This document shows positions 2 through 46,838 of a stretch of 64,000 bases of DNA, in pieces (the first letter of the stretch is position 1; every line of letters begins with the position of its first letter). The notes beneath the pieces were generated by a model. It was not told the DNA's origin, searched no databases, and saw only the letters and a program-made list of their open reading frames with translations. The translations under genes were made by a program, and so were the position numbers. The stretch comes from Thermoanaerobaculia bacterium (GTDB lineage: Bacteria; Acidobacteriota; Thermoanaerobaculia; Gp7-AA8): NCBI GenBank assembly GCA_036398925.1, contig DASWOB010000096.1, positions 67,285 through 131,284 of the forward strand, read 5' to 3'.

Positions 2-409
2 ACCATCGACCGCGCCGCCCTCGGCGAGACGGTCATCGGCGAGGGGACGAAGATCGACAACCTCGTCCAGATCGGCCACAACGTGAAGATCGGCAAGCAC
101 TGCCTGCTGGTCTCGCAGGTCGGCATCGCCGGCTCGACGGAGCTCGGCGACTACTGCGTCGTGGCCGGCCAGTCGGGCTTCGCCGGACACCTCAGGATCG
201 GCAGCCGCGTGCAGGTCGCGGCCAAGAGCGCCGTGCTCGAAGACGTGGCCGAGGGAACGAAAGTGATGGGCATCCCCGCGGTGCCGTTCCGCGAGTTCGC
301 GCGGCGCGAGGCGACGTTGCGACGCCTCACGCGCCGCAGGGCCGGCGGTGCGAGGGCCGAGGGCCTAGGGCCGAGGGCCGAGGGTGGGGAGCCCCAAAAT
401 ACGGAGTGA
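2..409 (+). CDS. lpxD: UDP-3-O-acylglucosamine N-acyltransferase, C-terminal part (5' end cut by window edge)
   Basis: Hexapeptide/left-handed beta-helix repeats ([30 protein letters not shown]...), followed by fabZ-lpxA as in the canonical lpxD-fabZ-lpxA cluster. Confidence 0.85.
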
Positions 410-445
410 ATTCTCTCGGCCCTCGGCCCTTGGCCCTCGGCCCTC
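352..445. repeat. Imperfect long hairpin: tandem GAGGGCC(GA) units (352-390), 23-nt loop, inverted copies CTCGGCCCT... (414-445); overlaps lpxD 3' end/stop in lpxD-fabZ spacer
   Basis: Read directly: left arm gagggccgagggcctagggccgagggccgagggtgggga, right arm is its near reverse complement. Confidence 0.85.
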
Positions 446-6823: not shown

Positions 6824-6889
6824 GCAGCTACTCAGCTGCACAGCTTCTCAGCCATTCAGGAGCTGAACGGCTGAGTAGCTGAACAGCTG
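6824..6889. repeat. Hairpin element, CAGCTGAGTAGCTG family (copy 1)
   Basis: gcagctactcagctgcacagc ... gctgagtagctgaacagctg; arms are mutual reverse complements; same units recur at 11094-11178. Confidence 0.8.
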
Positions 6890-9396: not shown

Positions 9397-10593
9397 ATGT
9401 CGCTCCGGGTTGCCCTGGTCCTCTTCCTGTTCGCCTCGGTCGCCTGCGGTCAGGCGGACGTCACCGAGCTGCCTTCGCCTGCCGGACGCGACGCGATGGC
9501 GCCCTTTCTGTCGACCGCCAGAGACGGCCGCGTGCTGATGTCGTGGCTCGAGCCGGTGGCCGGAAAGCGCTACTCCCTGAAGTTCGCCTCGTACGCAAAA
9601 GGGTCGTGGACCGAGGCGCGGACCATCGTCACGCGCGACGACTTCTTCGTGAACTGGGCCGATTTCCCGTCGATCGTGGCCGACGCGCGCGGGACGCTCT
9701 TCGCCCACTGGCTGCAGAAGAACGGCGACGGCACCTACTCCTACGACGTGCACGTGACCTCGTCACCCGACGGCGGGAAGAGCTGGCGTCCGTCGCGCGT
9801 GCTGCACACCGACGGCAAGCAGGCCGAGCACGGCTTCGTCTCCATGGTCCCGCGCGAGCGCGGCGTCGCGATCGTCTGGCTCGACGGACGTGAGATGACG
9901 ATGGACGACGCGCACGGTCACGGCGGCGGCGCGATGACCGTCCGCTACGCGAACCTCGACCCGACCCTCGTGACCTCCGGCGAGACGCTTCTCGACCCGC
10001 GGGCCTGCGAATGCTGCACGACCGCCATGACCATGACCTCCAGCGGCCCGGTGGTCGCGTATCGCGATCGCTCCGAGGAGGAGATCCGCGACATCAGCGT
10101 CACCCGTCTGCTGCCGGGCGGCCGCTGGAGCCAGCCCGCGCCCGTTCACAAAGACAACTGGAAGATCAACGGCTGCCCGGTCAACGGCCCGCAGATGGAC
10201 GCGCGCGGCGGCAACGTGGTCGTGGCGTGGTTCACCTCCGGCGGCGGCCAGCCGAAAGTGAACGTCGCCTTCTCGAAGAACGCCGGCGCGTCGTTCGCCG
10301 CACCGATCCGCGTCGATGCCGGCAAGCCGGCCGGCCGCGCCGACGTGCAGCTCCTCCGCGACGGCAGCGCCCTCGTGACCTGGATCGAGACCCAGAGCGA
10401 AGGGGCCAGCATCATGACCCGCCGCGTCTCCCCCGACGGCAGGATGCGCGACCCCAAACCCCTCGGATCGACCACCGCCGCCCGCGCTGCCGGCTTCCCG
10501 CGCACGACGATGGTGGGCGATCGCGAGGTGTGGTTCTCGTGGACCGAGCCCGGCACCCCTCGCAAAGTGCGCGTGGCGAAGCTGAAGGTGTAG
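9397..10593 (+). CDS. Secreted BNR/Asp-box repeat protein (sialidase/glycosyl hydrolase-like beta-propeller)
   Basis: Signal peptide with lipobox-like VACG; repeated S-x-D-G-G-x-x-W motifs (SSPDGGKSW, SPDG). Confidence 0.65.
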   Translation: MSLRVALVLFLFASVACGQADVTELPSPAGRDAMAPFLSTARDGRVLMSWLEPVAGKRYSLKFASYAKGSWTEARTIVTRDDFFVNWADFPSIVADARGTLFAHWLQKNGDGTYSYDVHVTSSPDGGKSWRPSRVLHTDGKQAEHGFVSMVPRERGVAIVWLDGREMTMDDAHGHGGGAMTVRYANLDPTLVTSGETLLDPRACECCTTAMTMTSSGPVVAYRDRSEEEIRDISVTRLLPGGRWSQPAPVHKDNWKINGCPVNGPQMDARGGNVVVAWFTSGGGQPKVNVAFSKNAGASFAAPIRVDAGKPAGRADVQLLRDGSALVTWIETQSEGASIMTRRVSPDGRMRDPKPLGSTTAARAAGFPRTTMVGDREVWFSWTEPGTPRKVRVAKLKV

Positions 10594-10598
10594 AGGGG

Positions 10599-10677
10599 GA
10601 GCGATGAGCGATGAACGATGAGCGATGAACCGAGACGTCGCGCGGACGTTCATCGCTCATCTCTCATCGCTCATCGG
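10599..10677. repeat. Hairpin element, CGATGAR family (copy 1)
   Basis: gagcgatgagcgatgaacgatgagcgatgaacc - loop gagacgtcgcgcggacg - ttcatcgctcatctctcatcgctcatcgg. Confidence 0.85.
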
Positions 10678-10687
10678 TGTCGCTGAG

Positions 10688-11020
10688 TTACTGCACCACG
10701 ATCTTCCCCCGCATCATGTCCATCCCGCAGTTGAAGACCAGATCGCTCTTCGGCGTGATGTCGATGTTCGTGGTCTTGCCGAGCTCGATCTTCTTCGAGA
10801 TCTTCAGCGCCGGGATGCTGACGGTGTCGCCGCAGGTCGGCTTTTCGTCACGAGTGAAGGCGAGGCGGACCTTTTCGCCTTTCTTCACCTTGACCACGTC
10901 GGGCGAGTAGAAGCCGCCGCTGACCTTGATGTTGACCGTCTTCACCTTCTTTTCTTTCGCGGCGGAGAGCGGGGTGACGAAGAGGGCGAGCGATACGAGT
11001 GCAACCATGATGCGTTTCAT
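10688..11020 (-). CDS. Small secreted cupredoxin-like protein (putative)
   Basis: Start at MKRIMVALVSLALF signal peptide; beta-rich 110 aa with Cys...Cys/Met pattern; fold assignment tentative. Confidence 0.5.
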   Translation of the reverse strand: MKRIMVALVSLALFVTPLSAAKEKKVKTVNIKVSGGFYSPDVVKVKKGEKVRLAFTRDEKPTCGDTVSIPALKISKKIELGKTTNIDITPKSDLVFNCGMDMMRGKIVVQ

Positions 11021-11093
11021 CGCGGATGGTAACGCCGCCCCCCGCGCATGTATGCCGATCGCGCCACGGAGCCGTGTGCGCGTTGTCACGGCC

Positions 11094-11178
11094 GCAGCTG
11101 CTCAGCTTTTCAGCTGCTCAGGCGCCGCACACCGCTCCCGCCGCCTGAACAGCTGAGTAGCTGAACAGCTGAATGGCT
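11094..11178. repeat. Hairpin element, CAGCTGAGTAGCTG family (copy 2)
   Basis: gcagctgctcagcttttcagctgctcagg - loop - ctgaacagctgagtagctgaacagctgaatggc. Confidence 0.8.
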
Positions 11179-12534: not shown

Positions 12535-12536
12535 TC

Positions 12537-12576
12537 GGTTCCTCGGAGTTCCTCGCGGTTCCTCGGAGTTCCTCGG
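12537..12576. repeat. Direct tandem GTTCCTCGG(A/C)G units (x4), GTTCCTCGG family (copy 1, no inverted arm)
   Basis: ggttcctcggagttcctcgcggttcctcggagttcctcgg immediately after pseudopilin stop. Confidence 0.75.
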
Positions 12577-12581
12577 CGTTT

Positions 12582-14245: not shown

Positions 14246-17200
14246 ATGCTGAGCCCCTCCGATCTCCACGGCGCGGACGCTCTCTCCCTCCTCCGCCTCC
14301 TCGGCTATCCGGTCGCCCCGGTCGACGTCGACGCCGAAGAATGGCGCCGCGGCGGCGTTCAGATTCCCTTCGCCGAGGGGACGCATGGCGACACCCGCTT
14401 CCAGCTGGCCGTACGCCTGCGCGCGTTCGACCTCTTCGTTCTCACTGGGAACGTACACGAAAAAGATATCTCTCAATTCTTACGGGATTACAATCAATAC
14501 AATCAAGCCACAAAATCGGTACTGATTCATCAGTCACCATCAATCAACAATAATCAGGTCGGTAATCAATCACACGAACCGTCACACAAACCGCTCGCGC
14601 TTTATGATCTCGCCGGCCGCACGCTGCGCCGTCTCGACGTCGATCTCGCTCGTCCCACGCCGCACTCCCTCGGCCGTCTCAATCTCCTCACCGCCGGCCC
14701 CGAGAGCGAGCTCCCCCGCATCTTCGACCGCGCCCTCGATCGCGAGAGCGTCGGCCGCCAGTTCTTCCTCCGCTTCCGCCAGGCGGTCTACGACGTCGCC
14801 GCCTCGCTGCGCGCCGCCTTCCCCGACGAGCCGAAGGAAGCCGTCGACGGCGAAGCGCTGCTGATCCTCTCCCGCCTCCTCTTCCTCTCCTTCGTCCAGG
14901 AGAAAGGATGGCTGAACGGCGAGCGCCGCTTCCTCGCCGACCGCCTCGCGCACGAGGTCCGCCGCGGCCGGGAGTGGTTCTCCGGCGTCCTCCTGCCGCT
15001 CTTCTTCGGCTGCCTCAACACGCCGCTGCACGAGCGCACCCTCGCCGCCCGCAGGCTCGGCCGCATCCCGTACCTCAACGGCGGCCTCTTCGAGCCGTCC
15101 CCCTTCGAGCGCCGTCATCGCGAGCTCCACCTGCCGAACGAGCTGATGCAGCGGGTGGTCGAAGAGCTCTTCGAAAAGTTCGATTTCTGCATCGACGAGA
15201 CCGGCGACGCGGAGAGTGCCGCCGCCGGCACCCGCGTCGACCCGGAGATGCTCGGCAAGGTCTTCGAGTCGCTGATGGCCGGCGGCGAGCGCGCCGCCAG
15301 CGGCAGCTTCTACACCCCCCGCGAGATCGTCGACACCCTCACCGAAAAAGCAATCGTGCACTGGCTGGGGGAGGGGGAGCCGGAGCAGCTCGCCGCCCGC
15401 CTCGAGACCATCACCCTCCTCGACCCCGCCTGCGGCTCCGGCGCCTTCCTCCTCTCCGCCCTCGGCGTCATCGAGCGCCTGCACCGCCGGCTCACCGGCC
15501 AGGCCCCGCCCGGCCTACGCCGGCGGATCATCGAGCGCTCCCTCTACGGCGTCGACCTCGAGCCGCGGGCGGTGCGCCTCTGCGAGCTGCGGCTCTGGCT
15601 GGCCATCGTCGCCAGCACCCCTCCCGCCATCGACGTAGCCATCGAAGAGGTGCCGCCCCTGCCCAACCTCGACCGCAACATCATGCAGGGCAACTCCCTC
15701 CTCGCCCCCACCGACTTTCTCGGCGACGGCCGCGCCGACGTCTACCGCGACTGGCTCTACGCCCTCCGCACCCAGCAGGACCTCCTCGAGCGCTACCGCA
15801 CCGCCTCCCACGCCCAGCGCCCCCTCATCGCCCGCATCCTCCGCGGCAACGACCAGCGCCTCGCCTCCGAGCTCCTGGCCAAATCCATCGACGCCGCCGA
15901 ACAGGAGCTCGCCCGGCGCACCACTCCGCGGCACGACCTCTTCGGCCGCGTCGTCCCCGCGGATGCCGAAGCGTGCCGCGCCCTCCAGGAGCGCATCGCC
16001 GGGCTGCAGCGCAAGCTCGACCGCGTCGAAGACGGCTCGCTCGACTTCTTCTCCTTCGACGTCCACTTTGCGCCCGTGATGGCCGCGGGTGGTTTCGACA
16101 TCGTGGCCGGCAACCCGCCGTGGGTGCGCAATAGCCGCATCGACGCGAGCACCAAGGCGATGCTGGCCGACCGCTACACCCTCTTCCGCCCCAGCGCCTC
16201 CGGCGCCGCCTTCCACCAGCCCGACCTCTCCGTCACCTTCTTCGAGCGCGCCCTGCAGCTGGCCGCCCCCGGCGGCGTGGTGGCCCTGCTCATGCCCTCC
16301 AAGATCCTCGGCAGCGCCTACGCCGCCCCGCTGCGCCGCCTCGCCGCCGAGCGCACCACCATCCTCTCCATCGACGACTGGAGCGACGACCCCCGCCGCC
16401 GCGCCTGGTTCGACGCCGACACCTTCCCCCTCGGCATCCTCTGCGCGAACGGCCGCGAACGCGGTTCGGTCGCCGTGAGCGCCGGCGGCCCGGTGGCGGT
16501 GAGCGCCGGGGGACAGGCCTTCACTTTGCCGCAAGCGTCGCTGCGCGAGTCCGGCGAATGGTCGCTCCTCCCCGCCGATGTCGCCCGGATCCTCTCCCGC
16601 CTCCGCCGCCAGCACCCACCGCTCGCCGAGGTGCTCGGCCGCAAGCCCTTCATGGGCGTCAAGACCGGCGACAACCGCAACTTCTTTCTGGACGTCGAAG
16701 AGCTCCGCGGCGACACCGTTCGTCTCCGTGACGGCCTCGAGCTCCCCCTCACCGCCGTCTGCCGCTGCGTCCGAGGGCGCGACGTCCGGCGCTGGAGCAG
16801 CGGCGGCTCGCACTGGATGCTCTGGCCGCCGCGTGGACGAGGTGGAAAAGAGGCGGCCGGATGGCCGTCGCCCCCCCACTGGCTGCGCCAGTTCGCCACG
16901 ATGCGACGGATCGACCCCCGCGCCGTCCGCCTCTCCTTCGTCCGCCCCGAGCACGTCGGCATCAAGGTCGCGTGGAAAGACCTCTCCCGAGGGATGGCCG
17001 CCACGGTCCTCCCCGACCAGGTCACCATCGGCGCGCACAGCGTCCCCCTCGTCCCCAACCAGACCCTCTACGCCCTCGACGCCGTCTCGATGGAGGAGGC
17101 CTACGTCCTGACCGCGCTACTCAACTCCGCCGTGGTCGACGCCCTCCTCCTCGCCGTCGGCGACCGCGCCAAAGACGCCCACTTTCGCTACTTCGGCCGC

Positions 17201-17389
17201 ACCGTCGCGAAGGTCCCCTTCGTCCGCGGCGAAGAAGCGGCGCTGCTGCGTCTCGCCCGCCGCGCCCATCAAGGCAGCGACGTGCAGGACGAGATCGATG
17301 CGCTCGTTGGCCGGTTGTATGGCTTGGCCGAGGGCGAGCTCGCGACGTTGAAGTCCTTCATCGCCTGGAGGCTCCGTGACCCTCGCTGA
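14246..17389 (+). CDS. MmeI/PglX-like type IIG-architecture N6-adenine DNA methyltransferase with C-terminal target-recognition domain; N-terminal degenerate PD-ExK-like motif
   Basis: 1047 aa; motifs GSFYTPREIV (X), LLDPACGSGAFLL (I), DIVAGNPPW (IV), helical-domain motifs SRLLFLSFVQEKGWL and PYLNGGLFEP, TRD motif FMGVKTGDNRNFFLD; N-terminal FDLFVLTGNVHEK. Confidence 0.85.
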   Translation: MLSPSDLHGADALSLLRLLGYPVAPVDVDAEEWRRGGVQIPFAEGTHGDTRFQLAVRLRAFDLFVLTGNVHEKDISQFLRDYNQYNQATKSVLIHQSPSINNNQVGNQSHEPSHKPLALYDLAGRTLRRLDVDLARPTPHSLGRLNLLTAGPESELPRIFDRALDRESVGRQFFLRFRQAVYDVAASLRAAFPDEPKEAVDGEALLILSRLLFLSFVQEKGWLNGERRFLADRLAHEVRRGREWFSGVLLPLFFGCLNTPLHERTLAARRLGRIPYLNGGLFEPSPFERRHRELHLPNELMQRVVEELFEKFDFCIDETGDAESAAAGTRVDPEMLGKVFESLMAGGERAASGSFYTPREIVDTLTEKAIVHWLGEGEPEQLAARLETITLLDPACGSGAFLLSALGVIERLHRRLTGQAPPGLRRRIIERSLYGVDLEPRAVRLCELRLWLAIVASTPPAIDVAIEEVPPLPNLDRNIMQGNSLLAPTDFLGDGRADVYRDWLYALRTQQDLLERYRTASHAQRPLIARILRGNDQRLASELLAKSIDAAEQELARRTTPRHDLFGRVVPADAEACRALQERIAGLQRKLDRVEDGSLDFFSFDVHFAPVMAAGGFDIVAGNPPWVRNSRIDASTKAMLADRYTLFRPSASGAAFHQPDLSVTFFERALQLAAPGGVVALLMPSKILGSAYAAPLRRLAAERTTILSIDDWSDDPRRRAWFDADTFPLGILCANGRERGSVAVSAGGPVAVSAGGQAFTLPQASLRESGEWSLLPADVARILSRLRRQHPPLAEVLGRKPFMGVKTGDNRNFFLDVEELRGDTVRLRDGLELPLTAVCRCVRGRDVRRWSSGGSHWMLWPPRGRGGKEAAGWPSPPHWLRQFATMRRIDPRAVRLSFVRPEHVGIKVAWKDLSRGMAATVLPDQVTIGAHSVPLVPNQTLYALDAVSMEEAYVLTALLNSAVVDALLLAVGDRAKDAHFRYFGRTVAKVPFVRGEEAALLRLARRAHQGSDVQDEIDALVGRLYGLAEGELATLKSFIAWRLRDPR

Positions 17390-18995
17390 GCATCAACGCG
17401 AAGCGGTCGCACGCGCCGAAGCGACGCTCGCCGCACGCGGCGGAGTGATCCTGGCGGACGAGGTCGGCCTCGGCAAGTCGTTCGTCGCCGCGGAGCTGAT
17501 GCGCCGCGCACAGCATGCCGAGCTGGTCATCCCCAATGCACTCGTCTCGCAGTGGCGCGAAACGCTGGCCACGTTCCACGTCGAGGCCGAGCTCTTCACG
17601 CACGACCGCATCCCGCCGGAGTGCAGCGCGCGCCCAAGGCTCATGGTGGTCGACGAAGCGCACGCCTTCCGCAACCCGAAGACCCGCCGCTACGCCGCGC
17701 TCGCGCAACGGAGCGTCGGAGCCCGCCTGCTCCTCGTCACCGCCACGCCGATCTGCAACAGCGTCGCGGACCTCGAAGCGCTGGTGCGGCTCTTCGCGCG
17801 GGATGACCTTCTGGCGGACCTCGGTGTGCCGTCGCTCGACGTCGCCTTCGCCACGGGAGATGCCGAAGCACTCGCCATCATCGTCAACGCCCTGGTGATT
17901 CGAAGAGATCGCAGCGTGCTGACGGACGACCTCCGCTTCGGCGAGCTCGAACGCCGCGTAGTCCGCCACCCGATCTTCACCGCCGCCGGTGAGGTCGCCC
18001 GGCTGATCGATGTGCTGCAGTTTCCGCTCGTCGGCGACCACGTCATTCTTCGCCGTTTCCTCTGGCGCCGGCTCGAATCGAGCGAAGCGGCGCTCCTCGA
18101 ATCGCTCCGCCGCCAGCTGCGGTTCTATGAGCGCGCGCGGCACTGCATCGCCAGTGGACGCACGCTGCCGAAACGCGATTACCGCCGCGCCTTCGGTCAT
18201 GAGGAAGATCGCGATGTCTTCCAGCAGGTGCTCTTCTGGGAGATGTTCGCGCCGGCGGGTGAGGCCGATCCGCACGCGATCGATGAAGAGGTGGCACGCC
18301 TCGAAGCGCTGGTCGCCTGCATCGCGCTCTCACCACGTACGAAGGTGAACCAGTTGATGGAGCTCGTGAGAGAGGAACGCGAGCCGATGCTGATCTTCAC
18401 CGGCGCGGCCGCCACCGCGTTCGAGCTGTACGACGCGCTCCGCGAGATCCGCAGATGCGGCGTCGTCACCGCGCGCGAGCGCTCCCGCGACGCCGTGCTC
18501 GACGCCTTCCAGCGCGGGCGCATCGACGTGCTCATCTCCACCGACCTCGCCGCGGAAGGGCTCAACCTCCAGCGCGCGGGCGTGGTCGTGCATTACGACA
18601 TCCCTTGGAATCCGGTGAAGCTCGACCAGCGCAACGGCCGCGCGCATCGCATCGGCCAGACCCGCGACTCCGTCCGCGCGATCTACTTTCTACCGGGGGG
18701 CTCCGAGACCCGGATCGTCGAGACGATCGCCAAGAAGAACCGGGTGCGGCGGCGGGTTCTGCAAAGCGGCATCGCTGCTGCCGCGGCTCGAAATCAGCGC
18801 ACCCTGCGGCCGCGCATTGCAGGCGATGCAGCCATCCTGGCCTTTGCGGATGCGGCGCGGCGCGCCGGCCTCACGTTGCCGGAGTCGCTCTACCGGCGTC
18901 ATCGCGCCGGCGGCGAGCTCCTGCTGCGGACCATGGCGGCGGAGAGACTCGATGCGAGGAGGGTCGCGGACGTGGCGGCGCTGCTCTCTCGATGA
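17376..18995 (+). CDS. SNF2-family (SF2) helicase/ATPase, compact 539 aa
   Basis: Motif I ADEVGLGKS, II VVDEAHAFRN, III LLVTATPICNS, helicase C-terminal DVLISTDLAAEGLNLQ, HRIGQTR; 14-bp overlap with MTase gene. Confidence 0.9.
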   Translation: MTLAEHQREAVARAEATLAARGGVILADEVGLGKSFVAAELMRRAQHAELVIPNALVSQWRETLATFHVEAELFTHDRIPPECSARPRLMVVDEAHAFRNPKTRRYAALAQRSVGARLLLVTATPICNSVADLEALVRLFARDDLLADLGVPSLDVAFATGDAEALAIIVNALVIRRDRSVLTDDLRFGELERRVVRHPIFTAAGEVARLIDVLQFPLVGDHVILRRFLWRRLESSEAALLESLRRQLRFYERARHCIASGRTLPKRDYRRAFGHEEDRDVFQQVLFWEMFAPAGEADPHAIDEEVARLEALVACIALSPRTKVNQLMELVREEREPMLIFTGAAATAFELYDALREIRRCGVVTARERSRDAVLDAFQRGRIDVLISTDLAAEGLNLQRAGVVVHYDIPWNPVKLDQRNGRAHRIGQTRDSVRAIYFLPGGSETRIVETIAKKNRVRRRVLQSGIAAAAARNQRTLRPRIAGDAAILAFADAARRAGLTLPESLYRRHRAGGELLLRTMAAERLDARRVADVAALLSR

Positions 18996-18999
18996 TCCC

Positions 19000-20240
19000 C
19001 ACCCCGTCAGGCCGGCTTTCGGGGAGCGGGCGTCCCGCCGCATTGGCGCTAACTTTCCTTGGTGCTACCGTAACTTCATGAAACCACGTGTGGATGTGGA
19101 TGAGCGGGAGTGGGTTCAGTTTCAGTGGCCGTATCTGCTAGCGCTGCTCGGGGGAGAGGGGAAGGTCAACGAGCTGGCGTACCGGACGGGGGCGTTCGTT
19201 CGCAGGCGCGAGGTGCACTCGCCAGCGGACCTGTTGCAGATGTTGATGATCTGGGCCGTGGCCGGGCGGTCGCTGCGCGAGACGGTGGCGCTCGCGTCGG
19301 AAGCTGGTCTGGCGGAGCTGAGCGATGTGGCGCTCCTGAAGCGTTTGAAACGAGCCGGCCCGTGGTTCGGCGCAATGCTCGGAGTGATGTTGACAGAGCG
19401 GCGGACCGTGCTGCCTGAAGGTGTCCGCATCCGGGTGATTGATGCCACGGCCATCGCGCGTATTGGACATCGCGGTACGGATCTTCGCGTGCACCTGGGG
19501 ATGGATCTTGGATTGAATTGCATCGACGCGATCGAGGTCACCGATGGTCGCGGCTCGGAGAGCCTGGACCGGTTCACCTTCCTGCCGGGTGAGATCGTGC
19601 TCGCTGATCGAGGCTACGCGCACCGCAAGCCGCTGGCGCGTCTGAGCGAAACTGGAGCGAATTTCATCGTCCGGCTGCCGTGGGCATCGGTTCCATTGAA
19701 AGATCTCGAGGGCAAGCCGTTCGATCTCTTTGCGGCGCTGCGCAGTCTGCCGGACGCCCGTGCCGGCTCATTTCTCGTGCAGTTCGAGGTCTCGAAGACG
19801 AGCCGCGTCGCGTGTCGAGTAGTGGCGATTCGGAAGAGTGAGGCTACTGCGGAGCGGTCACGCCAGCGTGCCATCGCCGAGAGTCGCCGTCACGGCACGG
19901 CGATCGATCCTCGTACTCTCGAAGCAGCAGGCTACTTCTACGTAAATCACCAATTTGACGGATGAGTATTCAGCAGCACAGGTGCTCGAGCTGTATCGGC
20001 TGCGCTGGCAGATCGAGATGAAATTCAAGAACCTCAAATCGGTGCTGCATCTCGGCGAAGTACCGGCCCGCAGCCCCGAGCTGTTCAAGGCCTATGTGAT
20101 GGCGAAGCTGCTCGTCGCGTTGGTGATCGAAAACCTGCTGTTGGACGAGTCTTTTTCCCCCTGGGGCTACCCAATCGCGGCGAGACGCCCGGCGCTATCG
20201 GACCCGACCCCGCGACGCGACCTCCGCTGCGCGCTGCTAA
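19000..20240 (+). mobile_element. IS4-like insertion sequence remnant (boundaries approximate, terminal IRs not resolved)
   Basis: Contains frameshifted DDE transposase; sits between helicase stop and convergent GGDEF gene stop. Confidence 0.5.
19078..20200 (+). pseudogene. IS4-family DDE transposase, split by a frameshift near 19955-19965 (two overlapping ORFs)
   Basis: C-terminal Y-2-R-3-E-6-K signature LYRLRWQIEMKFKNLK in second ORF; N-terminal ORF 296 aa ends FYVNHQFDG; second frame runs on without a convincing in-element stop. Confidence 0.75.
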
Positions 20241-21268
20241 CCGTTCCGGAAGAGACGTTCCACGACGTTCCGGTCCGACGAGGGGTATTCGTACACCTCC
20301 GGACCGCGGCCGGGATGCTTGCGCAGCCACTTGTTCTTGTACATGTCGCGGTCGGCGGCGGTCATCAGCTGGACGAGCGTCGGCGCTTCGAGCAGCCGCG
20401 AGGAGGCGATGCCCGCCGAGATGCCGACGCTGAACGTCGTGCCGCCCGCGGACCATTCGATCTCGGCGACGGCGCTGCTGAGGCGCTCGCAGATCCGCTC
20501 GAGCACCGGCACGTCCAGACGCGGCACGGCGATCACGAACTCGTCCCCGCCGAAACGCGCCACCACGTCTTCGACCCGCGTATGCGTGTGCAGCGCCGTC
20601 GCGACGTCGCGCAGCACCTGATCGCCCGTCAGGTGCCCGTACGTGTCGTTCACATGCTTGAAGCCGTCGAGGTCGAGGAGGACGACGTTCACCACCACCC
20701 CCTCGGCCAGCAGCCGTTCGGCCTCCGAGATGAAGAAGCGGCGGTTGAACGCCCCCGTCAGGTCGTCGCGCGTCGCCAGCCCGTACAGATCGCGGATGGC
20801 GAGATCCATCGTCCGCTGCCGCGCCGCCAGCCGCCGGCCGGCCGTCAGCTTGGCGACGATCTCGCGCTCCGAGGAAGTCTTGGTGAGGAAGTCGTCGAAG
20901 CCGGCGTCGAGCGCCGTCAGCTTCGTATCGACGTCTTCCCGGCTGGTGAGCATCACCGCGTACAGCGCCTGGGTGGCTTCGTTCGCTCGGAGGCGCCCCA
21001 CGGTCTCGATGCCGGTCAGGCGCGGCATCTCGTGGTCGATGACCACCATGTCGTAGGTCCCGTGAGCGAGCCGGTCGAGCCCCGCCTGCCCGTCGTCCGC
21101 CGTGTCGACCCAGAAGCCGAGCCGGCGCGTCAGTGCGGCCACGTAGGCGCGGTAGTTCGTGTCGTCGTCCACCAGCAGGATGCGGAGCGGTTCGGCGGCT
21201 TCGTCTTGCCGGCGGTCTGGCGGGTCATTCATGGTCACGGTCTCGTCAGCATGAAACGTTCGCTCCAA
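20237..21268 (-). CDS. Response regulator with receiver + GGDEF diguanylate cyclase domains (PleD-like)
   Basis: LLVDDD receiver, GGDEF motif ARFGGDEF, RxxD I-site. Confidence 0.9.
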   Translation of the reverse strand: MERTFHADETVTMNDPPDRRQDEAAEPLRILLVDDDTNYRAYVAALTRRLGFWVDTADDGQAGLDRLAHGTYDMVVIDHEMPRLTGIETVGRLRANEATQALYAVMLTSREDVDTKLTALDAGFDDFLTKTSSEREIVAKLTAGRRLAARQRTMDLAIRDLYGLATRDDLTGAFNRRFFISEAERLLAEGVVVNVVLLDLDGFKHVNDTYGHLTGDQVLRDVATALHTHTRVEDVVARFGGDEFVIAVPRLDVPVLERICERLSSAVAEIEWSAGGTTFSVGISAGIASSRLLEAPTLVQLMTAADRDMYKNKWLRKHPGRGPEVYEYPSSDRNVVERLFRNG

Positions 21269-21334
21269 ACCGGGCGTGTCGATGTGATGACAGTCACGTC
21301 GAGCAAAGAATCGTCCCCGGGAACGGCCGCTTAT

Positions 21335-21447
21335 GCGATGAACGATGAGCGATGAACGATGAGCGATGAGCGATGAGCGATGAGCGAGGAACCGCTCGCG
21401 CGACGGCCGGGTTCATCGTTCATCTCTCATCGCTCATCTCTCGTCGC
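21335..21447. repeat. Hairpin element, CGATGAR family (copy 2, longest)
   Basis: (gatgaacgatgagc)n left arm, loop ggaaccgctcgcgcgacggccggg, right arm ttcatcgttcatctctcatcgctcatctctcgtcg; in divergent GGDEF/NtrC promoter region. Confidence 0.85.
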
Positions 21448-21512
21448 CCCCCCCCACCCGTGCGAGGCCGGTCACGCAAGTCTCAGCACCGCTCTCCCTA
21501 TAATCACCAGCC

Positions 21513-22908
<1,396 letters not shown>

Positions 22909-22922
<14 letters not shown>

Positions 22923-30612: not shown

Positions 30613-30909
30613 ATGAAGAAGTCCCTCGTCGTCACCCTCGTTGCCATCCTCGCCCTCTCGCTGTTCGCCGTTTCCTGCAAGAAGGAAGAGGCCACCACCG
30701 ACACCGCCGTGACCGACACCTCGATGACCGCCGGCGACACCGCCGCGGTTGCGACCGACACGATGGCCACCGACACGATGTCGACCGACACGATGTCGAC
30801 CGACACGTCGGCCACCGGCACCGTCTCGACCACCGACACGTCGGCCACCGGCACGATCTCGACCACCGACAGCTCGGTCAGCGGTACGGTCTCGACGACC
30901 ACCACCTAG
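30613..30909 (+). CDS. Small lipoprotein with T/D/S-rich (M/S)TDT repeats, paralog 1
   Basis: Lipobox LFAVSC; repeats TDTMSTDTMSTDTSATGT. Confidence 0.7.
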   Translation: MKKSLVVTLVAILALSLFAVSCKKEEATTDTAVTDTSMTAGDTAAVATDTMATDTMSTDTMSTDTSATGTVSTTDTSATGTISTTDSSVSGTVSTTTT

Positions 30910-30936
30910 TCTTTCAGCAGTTCAGCAGTACCGGAA

Positions 30937-30963
30937 GGCCCCGCTTCGGCGGGGCCTTTTTTT
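30937..30963 (+). terminator. Intrinsic terminator (ggccccgc-ttcg-gcggggcc + T7)
   Basis: Perfect GC hairpin followed by ttttttt. Confidence 0.85.
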
Positions 30964-31038
30964 GTTCCTCGGGTTCCTCGGGTTCCTAGGCACCAACCGA
31001 CGTCCTGCCGAGGAACTCCGAGGAACCCGAGGAACCGC
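30964..31038. repeat. Hairpin element, GTTCCTCGG family (copy 2)
   Basis: gttcctcgggttcctcgggttcctagg - loop caccaaccgacgtcctg - ccgaggaactccgaggaacccgaggaacc. Confidence 0.85.
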
Positions 31039-31253: not shown

Positions 31254-31568
31254 ATGGCGAAAAAGTTTCTTGTTCTTCTGACCGTGATGGCTCTCATGAC
31301 GTTCGTTGCCTGTAAGGGCGATGAATCGGCGACCGCGACCGACACCGGCGCGACCGACACCGCGATGACCGACACCTCGGCCACGATGAGCACCACTGAC
31401 ACCGGTACCACCATGTCCACCGACACGATGTCCACCGATACGTCGATGACCGGCACCGCCGGCACCACCGACACGTCGATGACCGGCACCGGCACGACCG
31501 ACACCTCGATGACCGGCACCTCCGGCACGTCGACCACGTCGGGCACCGGCAGCACGACGACGACCTAG
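31254..31568 (+). CDS. Small lipoprotein with T/D/S-rich TDT repeats, paralog 2
   Basis: Lipobox FVACKG; TDTGATDTAMTDTSATMSTTDT repeats. Confidence 0.7.
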   Translation: MAKKFLVLLTVMALMTFVACKGDESATATDTGATDTAMTDTSATMSTTDTGTTMSTDTMSTDTSMTGTAGTTDTSMTGTGTTDTSMTGTSGTSTTSGTGSTTTT

Positions 31569-40243: not shown

Positions 40244-40335
40244 AACGAACGATGAACGATGAAGGATGAACGATGAACAAGAGCGCTGGCGTCCGCGAAG
40301 CGTGTTCATCGTTCATCCTTCATCGTTCATCGTTT
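40244..40335. repeat. Hairpin element, CGATGAR family (copy 3, perfect 31-nt arms)
   Basis: aacgaacgatgaacgatgaaggatgaacgatgaa - loop agagcgctggcgtccgcgaagcgtg - ttcatcgttcatccttcatcgttcatcgttt; between pyrH and frr. Confidence 0.9.
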
Positions 40336-45855: not shown

Positions 45856-45918
45856 GAAGGTGCCGATGTCCTGAGTTGAGGACGCTCGGCCAGGGTTGAG
45901 TCCGTCGGTAGCATAGTC

Positions 45919-46275
45919 GACGCGATTGATTGCACCGGCGATGTCATCGATTGCATCCGCGATGCGATCGATTGCATCGGCGATGTCATCGATTGCATGC
46001 GCGATGCGATCGATTGCATCCGCGATGTCATCGATTGCATGCGCGATGCGATCGATTGCATCCGCGATGTCATCGATTGCACCGGCGATGCGATCGATTG
46101 CATCGGCGATGTCATCGATTGCACCCGCGATGCGATCGATTGCACCGGCGATGCGATCGATTGCACCCGCGATGTCATCGATTGCACCGGCGATGCGATC
46201 GATTGCACCCGCGACGTCATCGATTGCATCGGCGATGCGACCGATTGCATCGGCGAAGAGATCGATCGCTTCGGC
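45919..46275. repeat. Tandem array of ~17 x 21-bp units (alternating GATGTCATCGATTGCA / GATGCGATCGATTGCA cores; 42-bp higher-order period); all six frames open
   Basis: Read directly; units contain ATCGAT palindrome core; minus frame would encode (AIDRIAG/AIDDIAD)n heptads. Confidence 0.9.
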
Positions 46276-46477
46276 CATCCCATCGGCGGGGTCATGGCTC
46301 AGGCGTGACGCACCTCCCTCGCGGGCGCGAACACGCTCCAATTCCCGGAATAGGTTCCGCTTGCGTGCCGTTTGGCACTCTGCTATAACCCGCAGTTCTT
46401 CGGCCGCCGCTCGTGCGTGGAGCCATCCAACGACGCAGTGCAGAAGGCTGTTGTGTCTTTGAAATGAAGGAATTGGC

Positions 46478-46575: not shown

Positions 46576-46662
46576 GGAGAGATGGCTGAGCGGCTAAAAG
46601 CAGCAGACTGTAAATCTGCCGGTCCATGACCTACGGAGGTTCGAATCCTCCTCTCTCCACCA
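46576..46662 (+). tRNA. tRNA-Tyr (anticodon GUA), long variable arm
   Basis: GGAGAGA...TCTCTCC acceptor, loop ctGTAaa, GGTTCGAATCC. Confidence 0.9.
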
Positions 46663-46670
46663 CTAGAAAC

Positions 46671-46760
46671 AGCTCTTGGCTGTTGGCTCTTAGCTCTTAG
46701 GGAAGGCCGTCGCGCGAGGCCGTCGTTCTCCTAAGAGCTAACAGCTAAGAGCCAACAGCT
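46671..46760. repeat. Hairpin element (AGCTCTT/GGCTGTT units) between tRNA-Tyr and tRNA-Gly
   Basis: agctcttggctgttggctcttagctcttaggg - loop with cgcgcg - ctaagagctaacagctaagagccaacagct. Confidence 0.85.
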
Positions 46761-46763
46761 CGT

Positions 46764-46838
46764 GCGGGAGTAACTCAGGGGTAGAGTCACAGCCTTCCAA
46801 GCTGTTGGTCGCGGGTTCGAATCCCGTCTCCCGCTCCA
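46764..46838 (+). tRNA. tRNA-Gly (anticodon UCC)
   Basis: Loop cTTCCAa, GGTTCGAATCC T-arm. Confidence 0.9.

Follow-up and report, generated by a model that had tools for sequence, protein, structure and literature searches.

It has been known since ~1990 that some bacteria are unusually rich in tandem repeats of heptanucleotides. How one heptamer unit reaches many loci has, to our knowledge, never been explained. Here, we analyze a 64,000-nt stretch of DNA (hereafter, the window) from an uncultured member of the Thermoanaerobaculia (Acidobacteriota), in which tandem arrays of the unit CGATGAR are paired with their inverted complements to form long hairpins at three loci. These CGATGAR hairpins are best read as a new family, in other phyla, of the known inverted heptanucleotide arrays, of which the GGGAATC pairs of Xanthomonas and the short tandemly repeated repetitive (STRR) sequences of cyanobacteria are examples.

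In Xanthomonas, ~185 GGGAATC arrays are described, most of four units, and in each genome 70-75 of them form inverted pairs of convergent orientation (Rehm et al. 2015, PMC4692102). The CGATGAR elements resemble them as intergenic tandem heptamers of ~4 units, arranged in fixed convergent pairs that are capable of forming stem-loops. All defining features of inverted heptanucleotide pairs (7-nt tandem units, convergent array pairs and intergenic location) are present, and the number of units varies at an orthologous array of a second family (GTTCCTCGG). Whereas the positions of the Xanthomonas arrays are conserved between close species and unit number is variable, CGATGAR elements are often absent at orthologous sites. 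They also differ from the Xanthomonas arrays in that they occur in Acidobacteriota and other phyla, and in that some loops are common to unrelated loci. The tract of ≥3 G per unit that characterizes the quadruplex heptamers of Xanthomonas and Nostoc (GGGAATC, GGGGAYT) is lacking from CGATGAR; the units of all three window elements are without G-runs, so no G-quadruplex is possible.

Cyanobacterial STRR sequences and the TAACTGA repeats of Beggiatoaceae are heptamer arrays that are almost all direct, with 1 of 170 TAACTGA sets inverted (PMC4679880). Like the elements studied here, they occupy many intergenic loci, comprise several unit families, place different heptamers side by side and have a scattered phylogeny without evident means of transfer. 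Often they lie oriented immediately upstream of a start codon, whereas CGATGAR elements are inverted pairs that make long hairpins. A further parallel comes from Fusarium mitochondria, in which elements composed of a palindromic microsatellite and its complement, (A)n/(T)n, vary in presence between close species, are associated with indels nearby and have been proposed to be mobile (PMC7218506). Those elements, unlike CGATGAR hairpins, have mononucleotide units and lie in AT-rich sequence of an organelle genome.

Our literature search for CGATGAA repeat strings found no paper. To what is known, the window and its relatives add naturally occurring sites that are filled in one genome and empty in a close relative, with examples in essential operons (pyrH-frr, lpxD-fabZ and a tRNA cluster); a strict rule of structure, by which the purine-rich array is always 5' and each arm has approximately four units; and hints of whole-element descent in the form of loops shared by unrelated loci and one nested hairpin. 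The filled and empty sites, the structural rule and the hints of descent are constraints with which any proposed mechanism can be tested.

Structure and genomic setting of the CGATGAR hairpins

The three loci share a plan in which a tandem CGATGAR array is followed by a GC-rich spacer of 16-23 nt and then by a complementary YTCATCG array.

10599..10677, no strand assigned: element 1; 5' arm (GAGCGAT/GAACGAT)x4 at 10599-10630, loop CGAGACGTCGCGCGGAC at 10631-10647, 3' arm at 10648-10676
21335..21447, no strand assigned: element 2; left array of ~8 units at 21335-21393, loop at 21394-21409, right array of ~5 units at 21410-21447
40244..40335, no strand assigned: element 3; perfect arms of 32 nt at 40248-40279 and 40303-40334, 100% complementary, loop of 23 nt

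An initial annotation, made from the sequence alone, had recognized these three copies, each as an array, a loop containing CGCG and an inverted array, and had described the third as a perfect inverted repeat. Both descriptions held on reanalysis, and CGCG was found in the loop of every one of the three. Period 7 was called in all six arms by Tandem Repeats Finder, and CGATGARCGATGAR, at ≤1 mismatch, has 22 matches in the window versus 0.23 expected. A hairpin scan paired the arms of element 1 at 10602-10630 and 10648-10676 (29 nt, 93% complementary, loop of 17 nt), and the best-pairing arms of element 2 over 37 nt (86% complementary, loop of 16 nt). RNA fold prediction, a check proposed with the annotation, gives stems of -52 to -73 kcal/mol, alike on both strands, with z-scores of -4.4 to -9.9. 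Element 1 is predicted to fold at -57.4 and -52.3 kcal/mol, one value per strand, and element 3 at -63.3 kcal/mol (z -9.9).

The genomic settings are also as first described. Element 1 occupies the 94-nt spacer of convergent genes at 9397-10593(+) and 10688-11089(-), which are BNR-like and cupredoxin genes. Element 2 lies between divergent genes for a GGDEF response regulator (20237-21268, -) and NtrC (21513-22922, +). Element 3 is inside the pyrH-frr operon, where it starts 4 nt past the pyrH stop (TAG) and ends 2 nt 5' of the frr Shine-Dalgarno sequence GAGGTG. The expectation that such repeats would be translated as spurious (MSDER)n open reading frames (ORFs) needs amendment: the CGATGAR strand has TGA in each of its three frames, so translation yields MSDER and then stops, and a repeating spurious ORF is possible solely on the YTCATCG strand.

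The elements are real rather than assembly duplications, because their flanks differ and the same sequence was recovered from three independent assemblies (JGI, ENA and Logan). The window corresponds to positions 5817-69816 of the JGI metagenome contig Ga0334964_000064, and an ENA contig (L203) matches it perfectly over 10.8 kb that include the hairpins at 352, 6825 and 10599. We considered this contig as a case of strain-level variation and rejected the idea: with 10.8 kb and three hairpins identical it is from the same strain, and is thus uninformative on instability. The JGI and ENA sequences have 18 differences, every one of them within 109 bases (window 4-112, L203 179-287) that lie inside lpxD and near the start of the ENA contig, suggesting either a recombination tract or a contig end that is chimeric. 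One Logan contig terminates within the right arm of element 3, an example of how these hairpins break assemblies.

Distribution, polarity and periodicity

We scanned one genome per species for the pattern (CGATGAR)3 and found at least 119 contig stretches, so the further copies that the initial annotation anticipated do exist. Among the matches listed, ~45 are from Acidobacteriota (17 of these from Thermoanaerobaculia), ~21 from Bacteroidota, 13 from Planctomycetota and 6 from Gemmatimonadaceae, and the remainder are scattered. Within the 119 listed stretches there are 83 hairpins with periodic arms. In an unselected 361 kb around frr from related metagenome contigs, periodic-arm hairpins (15) are about as numerous as non-periodic long hairpins (16). 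Hairpins of inverted short tandem repeats form a class that is common among Acidobacteriota, Thermoanaerobaculia included, and that occurs in other phyla as well. The CGATGAR elements are a dispersed family within this larger, modular class, much as the initial annotation had supposed.

The period is 7 in 83 of 105 periodic hairpins, 8 in 13 and 9 in 6. Polarity is strict in the CGATGAA family: in 41 of 41 pairs the 5' arm is formed by the purine-rich array, so that all 41 are convergent and none (0) divergent. The mode of arm length is four units. We considered, and rejected, three-frame stops in the 5' arm as the cause of the polarity; CGATGAR has such stops, but other unit families split 29 versus 16 (p = 0.07). 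The CAGCTG elements of the window are arranged in the opposite way to this stop-codon rule.

Viral contigs, scanned as possible carriers, gave 11 matches, mostly solo or mosaic arrays, and one hairpin-like pair. Head-to-tail arrays of different heptamers occur in L209, L219, L075, L078 and L048, and also in viral contigs; examples of such mosaics, an arrangement also described for cyanobacterial STRR sequences, are (GGGTAGC)n(GGGAAGC)n(GAACGAT)n and (CGATGAA)3(CACCGAA)8.

Recent gain at orthologous sites

Comparison of presence and absence between relatives, as proposed at the outset, shows that elements 2 and 3 and another window hairpin at 11095 are missing from relatives. In seven relatives with ribosome recycling factor (RRF) sequences 76-85% identical, the pyrH-frr spacer is 0-60 nt long and without a hairpin; the pyrH genes of those seven are ~5-20 codons longer than that of the window. 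In a more distant genome (L133), the pyrH-frr spacer holds a hairpin built from another heptamer. Element 2 is missing in relatives with NtrC 92-96% identical, and the 11095 hairpin is missing at the orthologous site of the relative L206. Conversely, L207 carries a heptamer hairpin that is absent from the window, L206 and L208. A direct array of the GTTCCTCGG family at 12536-12580 is kept in L206, with three units there versus four in the window. The elements were recently gained, and these filled and empty patterns imply that turnover is fast relative to ~5-25% protein divergence.

Element 2 sits 13 nt inside the right junction of a 2.46-kb lineage-specific insertion (19004-21460) that is absent in L206. 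The insertion contains a weak DDE-transposase-like ORF, the GGDEF response regulator gene and element 2; the ORF (18817-19965) matches DDE_Tnp_1 at 24.7 bits against a cut-off of 23. Two diverged copies of a ~50-bp native segment (~18950-19003 and 21461-21512) and CCCCACCC motifs bracket the insertion. L207 and L208 hold other cargo at the same spot (GH113, MazE/PIN and HicB genes), indicating an integration hot spot. Just to its left, at 14246-18995, an MmeI-like type IIG restriction-modification gene is followed by a SNF2/ResIII helicase gene, a pair that is kept in L206-L208. To its right, the NtrC-family gene starts with GTG, and 9 nt 5' of this start a TATAAT is conserved in the window (21486-21515) and in L206, L207 and L208. 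No Shine-Dalgarno sequence is visible in this 9-nt gap, which suggests a leaderless NtrC mRNA. Proteins closely homologous to this NtrC carry the label Thermoanaerobaculia.

How the hairpins may originate and spread

How, then, do these hairpins reach their sites? Our tentative preference, to which we assign a probability of about 0.42, is that the three loci belong to one family of selfish or near-neutral non-coding hairpins that spread whole and subsequently slip by units, with any effects at the RNA level incidental. Behavior as a family, rather than random local growth, is indicated by recurrence at three loci in 64 kb and in at least 119 stretches from other genomes, the 41:0 polarity, the four-unit mode and the shared loops. 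Loops with AGTTGTCTT are common to L038, L055 and L089, the flanks of which are non-homologous, and in L007 the loops of two copies separated by 2.3 kb are alike at 14 of 15 positions. One of these two copies is nested in a second heptamer hairpin, forming a mosaic (2808-2970) in which an outer (GATTTTR)4 and an inner (CGATGAA)5 are mirrored blockwise, giving arms of ~70 nt in total. The window has two exact occurrences of the 14-mer GGCCGTCGCGCGAG, each in a hairpin loop (those of element 2 and of a GCTCTTR element), and the other loci have none.

Two ideas about the loops were rejected. A dispersed family of naked cores around GGCCGTCGCGCGAG is not seen, since matches with ≤3 mismatches are at chance level (79 versus 69) and the motif is absent from other loci; derivation of the loop of element 2 from an adjacent duplicated native segment is not supported, the alignment score being non-significant. 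In L009 (1345-1647), CGATGAA arrays surround a palindromic core of ~200 bp.

Slippage after arrival is suggested by unequal arms (for example, 8 versus 5 units in element 2), by degenerate units present in loops, by variant units that are not mirrored between arms, and by the three versus four units at the orthologous GTTCCTCGG array. The agreement in variant-unit order between arms is 0.916 observed versus 0.911 shuffled, with 0 of 29 significant, in a test of low power. We therefore rejected, within the reach of the same low-power test, the notion that arms are exact inverted copies held paired by selection.

If the family spreads in this way, the unit of spread would be the whole hairpin, copied to new intergenic sites through a single-strand hairpin or a microhomology-guided template switch, possibly without any element-encoded protein. 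After arrival, each arm would change independently by slippage of whole units. Copies would be tolerated wherever they destroy no coding region or ribosome-binding site, essential operons included. A transcript of either strand would form the same ~30-bp stem, and targeting by RNase III, blocking of 3' exonucleases or uncoupling of cistrons would be by-products rather than the reason for existence. The outcome would be 30-bp RNA stems placed within operons of abundant soil Acidobacteriota.

The junctions bear on both descent and local origin. Element 3 is flanked on both sides by an 8-nt direct repeat, ATCGTTTC, that itself resembles the repeat unit, and relatives have CGATG there. Similarity to native sequence is also seen at the junctions in L207 (CAGTT), at 11095 (GAACCGAGAA) and beside element 2 (CGATGCGAGG), and in four of four comparisons of filled and empty sites the hairpin's base is similar to native sequence. 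No target-site duplication was seen at eight related copies (in L007, L014, L038, L055, L089 and L093). Whole-element descent and these signs of local seeding would both be accommodated if copying were guided by microhomology.

Several points weigh against spread as a family. We found neither defined termini nor a consistent target-site duplication nor a cognate transposase, and no two full-length identical copies occur among the loci examined. The loops of the three window copies largely differ, although recent copies of one master should share loops, and the matches by which loop sub-families are recognized are 9-14 nt long. The similarity of junctions to native sequence suits seeding in situ equally well. 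Cross-phylum spread of an 80-bp non-autonomous element needs a vehicle, and the viral scan gave mostly solo or mosaic arrays. In addition, the gene-context counts given below are based on crude longest-ORF gene calls, and the genome scan, with its at least 119 stretches, was selected for the CGATGAR unit.

An origin in situ at each locus is the alternative that survives best, though we consider it unlikely. Under this scenario, a local 7-mer duplication expands by slippage and a fold-back template switch inverts it; nothing moves between loci, and recurring units reflect heptamers that are prone to expansion. Heptamer tandem repeats are over-represented in prokaryotes, an excess that has been ascribed to slippage of the polymerase (Mrazek 2007, as cited in PMC4679880 and PMC4692102). 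Genomes carry many units (five types in 8 kb of L079, and five in the window), the two arms of a hairpin act as separate arrays, an orthologous array differs in its number of units, and the hairpin base is native-like in all four comparisons noted above. However, random seeds cannot yield three CGATGAR, two CAGCTGNN and two GTTCCTCGG copies in 64 kb, and local growth leaves unexplained the 41:0 polarity, a four-unit mode in place of a decaying distribution of arm lengths, and the loop motifs common to unrelated loci.

It is quite unlikely that the hairpins are selected cis elements that act at the RNA level, whether as bidirectional insulators or terminators, RNase III sites or 3'-end stabilizers that set the expression of neighbours such as pyrH and frr. 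Such roles fit stems that are very stable and equal on both strands, the tight placement of elements from stop codon to Shine-Dalgarno sequence (40244 and 351), between convergent genes (10599 and 6825) and between tRNAs (46671), and an arm length near 28 bp, as in the Xanthomonas arrays, which are mostly transcribed (PMC4692102). As with intrinsic terminators, a stable hairpin lies 3' of genes, and its symmetric form would serve both strands. However, the CGATGAR hairpins differ from intrinsic terminators in lacking a U-tract, in stems that are three times longer and in showing no depletion between divergent genes. The sequences after the arms of elements 1-3 (GGTGTCGC, CCCCCCCCC and TTTCCGAGG) contain no T-tract, and a terminator scan of 21200-21560 found nothing at element 2. 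The 77 classifiable periodic hairpins comprise 55 co-directional, 12 convergent and 10 divergent cases by crude gene calls, similar to the background of gene pairs (566, 182 and 173, respectively), so they are not enriched at 3' ends; non-periodic long hairpins, by contrast, are in 16 convergent versus 3 divergent spacers. The terminator role put forward in the initial annotation was consequently rejected, on the missing T-tract and the missing depletion in divergent spacers. More generally, the absence of elements from the same spacers of close relatives indicates that they are not conserved regulators, and mismatches between variant units are uncompensated. Only five tRNAs in the window reach the gathering threshold in Rfam 15, and a permissive Rfam search gave, for the hairpins, sub-threshold matches to miRNA-precursor models alone; no element matches an Rfam family.

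There is a slim chance that a sequence-directed copy-and-paste process, driven by hairpins and template switching or by a dedicated enzyme, installs arrays of fixed polarity and ~4+4 units across several phyla without an element-encoded transposase. If true, this would explain how one heptamer comes to occupy hundreds of loci, as in the STRR, TAACTGA and GGGAATC repeats.

Movement in trans by a dedicated transposase is very improbable. The enzyme could be a repetitive extragenic palindrome (REP)-associated tyrosine transposase (RAYT), an IS200/IS605-type Y1 transposase or a DDE enzyme that reads the arrays as terminal inverted repeats, and the hairpins would then be akin to REPs and their compound forms, bacterial interspersed mosaic elements (BIMEs) and REP doublets (REPINs), or to MITEs (miniature inverted-repeat transposable elements). 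The elements are dispersed, palindromic, intergenic and lineage-specific; the nested L007 hairpin looks like an insertion into a hairpin loop; ATCGTTTC forms a direct repeat around element 3; and the DDE_Tnp_1-like ORF is 1.4 kb from element 2 within the same 2.46-kb insertion. The match of that ORF is weak, however, and the GGDEF gene separates it from element 2. Sharp ends and a consistent target-site duplication are lacking. MITEs end at defined points in terminal inverted repeats of unique sequence, are flanked by target-site duplications and have a parent insertion sequence. No such feature could be shown for CGATGAR hairpins, which resemble MITEs such as Correia elements and Neisseria miniature insertion sequences (NEMIS) in being small, intergenic, present or absent between relatives and bounded by inverted repeats; MITEs are co-transcribed. 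REPs, likewise abundant extragenic palindromes, are often transcribed and have been proposed to be non-autonomous mobile DNA. They have stems of 5-13 bp, a unique sequence that is conserved and a tetranucleotide tag that stays unpaired (GTAG/CGTC), and the GTAG type is tied to RAYT (PMC3733652, PMC3116915). CGATGAR stems are instead 29-37 bp of tandem heptamer units, and membership in the REPs was rejected on this basis. Neither GTAG nor CGTC is at the ends of the three elements (CGTC is only inside some loops), and the Pfam annotations of 79 kb of the source genome include no Y1 or RAYT gene, the transposase that the initial annotation had suggested looking for. Of its description of the repeats as REP/MITE-like, the REP part fails on stem length and the missing tag, and MITE-like mobility stays plausible, given presence and absence in relatives, shared loops and the nested hairpin.

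Finally, a DNA-level array in which a nucleoid protein, regulator or restriction-modification component reads oriented heptamers around a center would suit the strict polarity, the conservation of the heptamer across lineages, the ~four sites per side, the position of element 2 right against the conserved promoter region of NtrC, at its upstream edge, and the binding protein speculated for Nostoc heptamer repeats (bioRxiv 10.1101/2022.06.06.494920), but is hardly credible given the many unrelated units per genome, the elements missing at orthologous sites of relatives, the lack of a consistent position relative to promoters and of a known candidate protein.

Other hairpins of the class and neighbouring features

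The hairpin scan and repeat tools identified five further window hairpins with tandem-repeat arms of other units, and one direct array.

351..445, no strand assigned: GAGGGCC hairpin, 7-nt unit; arms 352-382 and 415-445; between lpxD and fabZ (fabZ start at 458)
6825..6889, no strand assigned: 8-nt-unit hairpin, unit CAGCTNNN, CAGCTGNN family; between convergent genes
11095..11171, no strand assigned: 8-nt-unit hairpin, unit CAGCTGNN; second copy of the 6825 family
12536..12580, no strand assigned: direct-only array, (GTTCCTCGGN)x4, GTTCCTCGG family, without an inverted arm; between convergent genes
30964..31036, no strand assigned: 9-nt-unit hairpin, unit GTTCCTCGG; directly after a terminator at 30934-30963; between two co-directional small lipoprotein genes
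46671..46760, no strand assigned: GCTCTTR hairpin, 7-nt unit; between tRNA-Tyr (46576-46662) and tRNA-Gly (46764-46838)

The window total is eight hairpins with periodic arms plus the one direct-only array, short of the at least ten structures initially counted in the 64 kb, and the additional 15 kb of contig beyond the window holds no further periodic hairpins. Hairpins with arms of ≥18 nt number nine in the window versus 0.2 in dinucleotide-preserving shuffles. The nine structures of the class lie between co-directional (4), convergent (3) and divergent (1) genes, with one context uncertain. The four co-directional ones are in operons or gene clusters: lpxD-fabZ, pyrH-frr, the tRNA genes and the lipoprotein gene pair. 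Two hairpins (351 and 40244) end 12-13 nt 5' of the next start codon, against the Shine-Dalgarno sequence.

Hairpins of this kind create spurious or extended ORFs. The lpxD frame (83-409, JGI call), for example, crosses the left arm of the GAGGGCC hairpin and stops at 409 in the loop, so that its last ~19 residues are encoded by the repeat.

The hairpin at 30964 adjoins a genuine terminator rather than replacing it. This is a textbook intrinsic terminator, in which GGCCCCGC-TTCG-GCGGGGCC is followed by T7 (30934-30963). The lipoprotein genes on either side (30613-30909 and 31254-31568) are paralogous, with Thr/Ser/Asp-rich coding repeats of 15 and 33 nt. In L206 (3430-3671), a 178-bp tandem duplication covers the 3' end of a GspH-like gene, and each copy closes in (GTTCCTCGG)3; it may be a real event bounded by the repeat or an assembly artefact.

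Just 5' of the tRNA cluster, at 45918-46275, there are ~16.6 copies of a 21-nt unit (42-nt super-unit) that is partly palindromic at the DNA level. This array overlaps a JGI-called 103-aa ORF (45997-46308, +) that is a near-perfect heptad repeat, (RDAIDCI/RDVIDCT)n.

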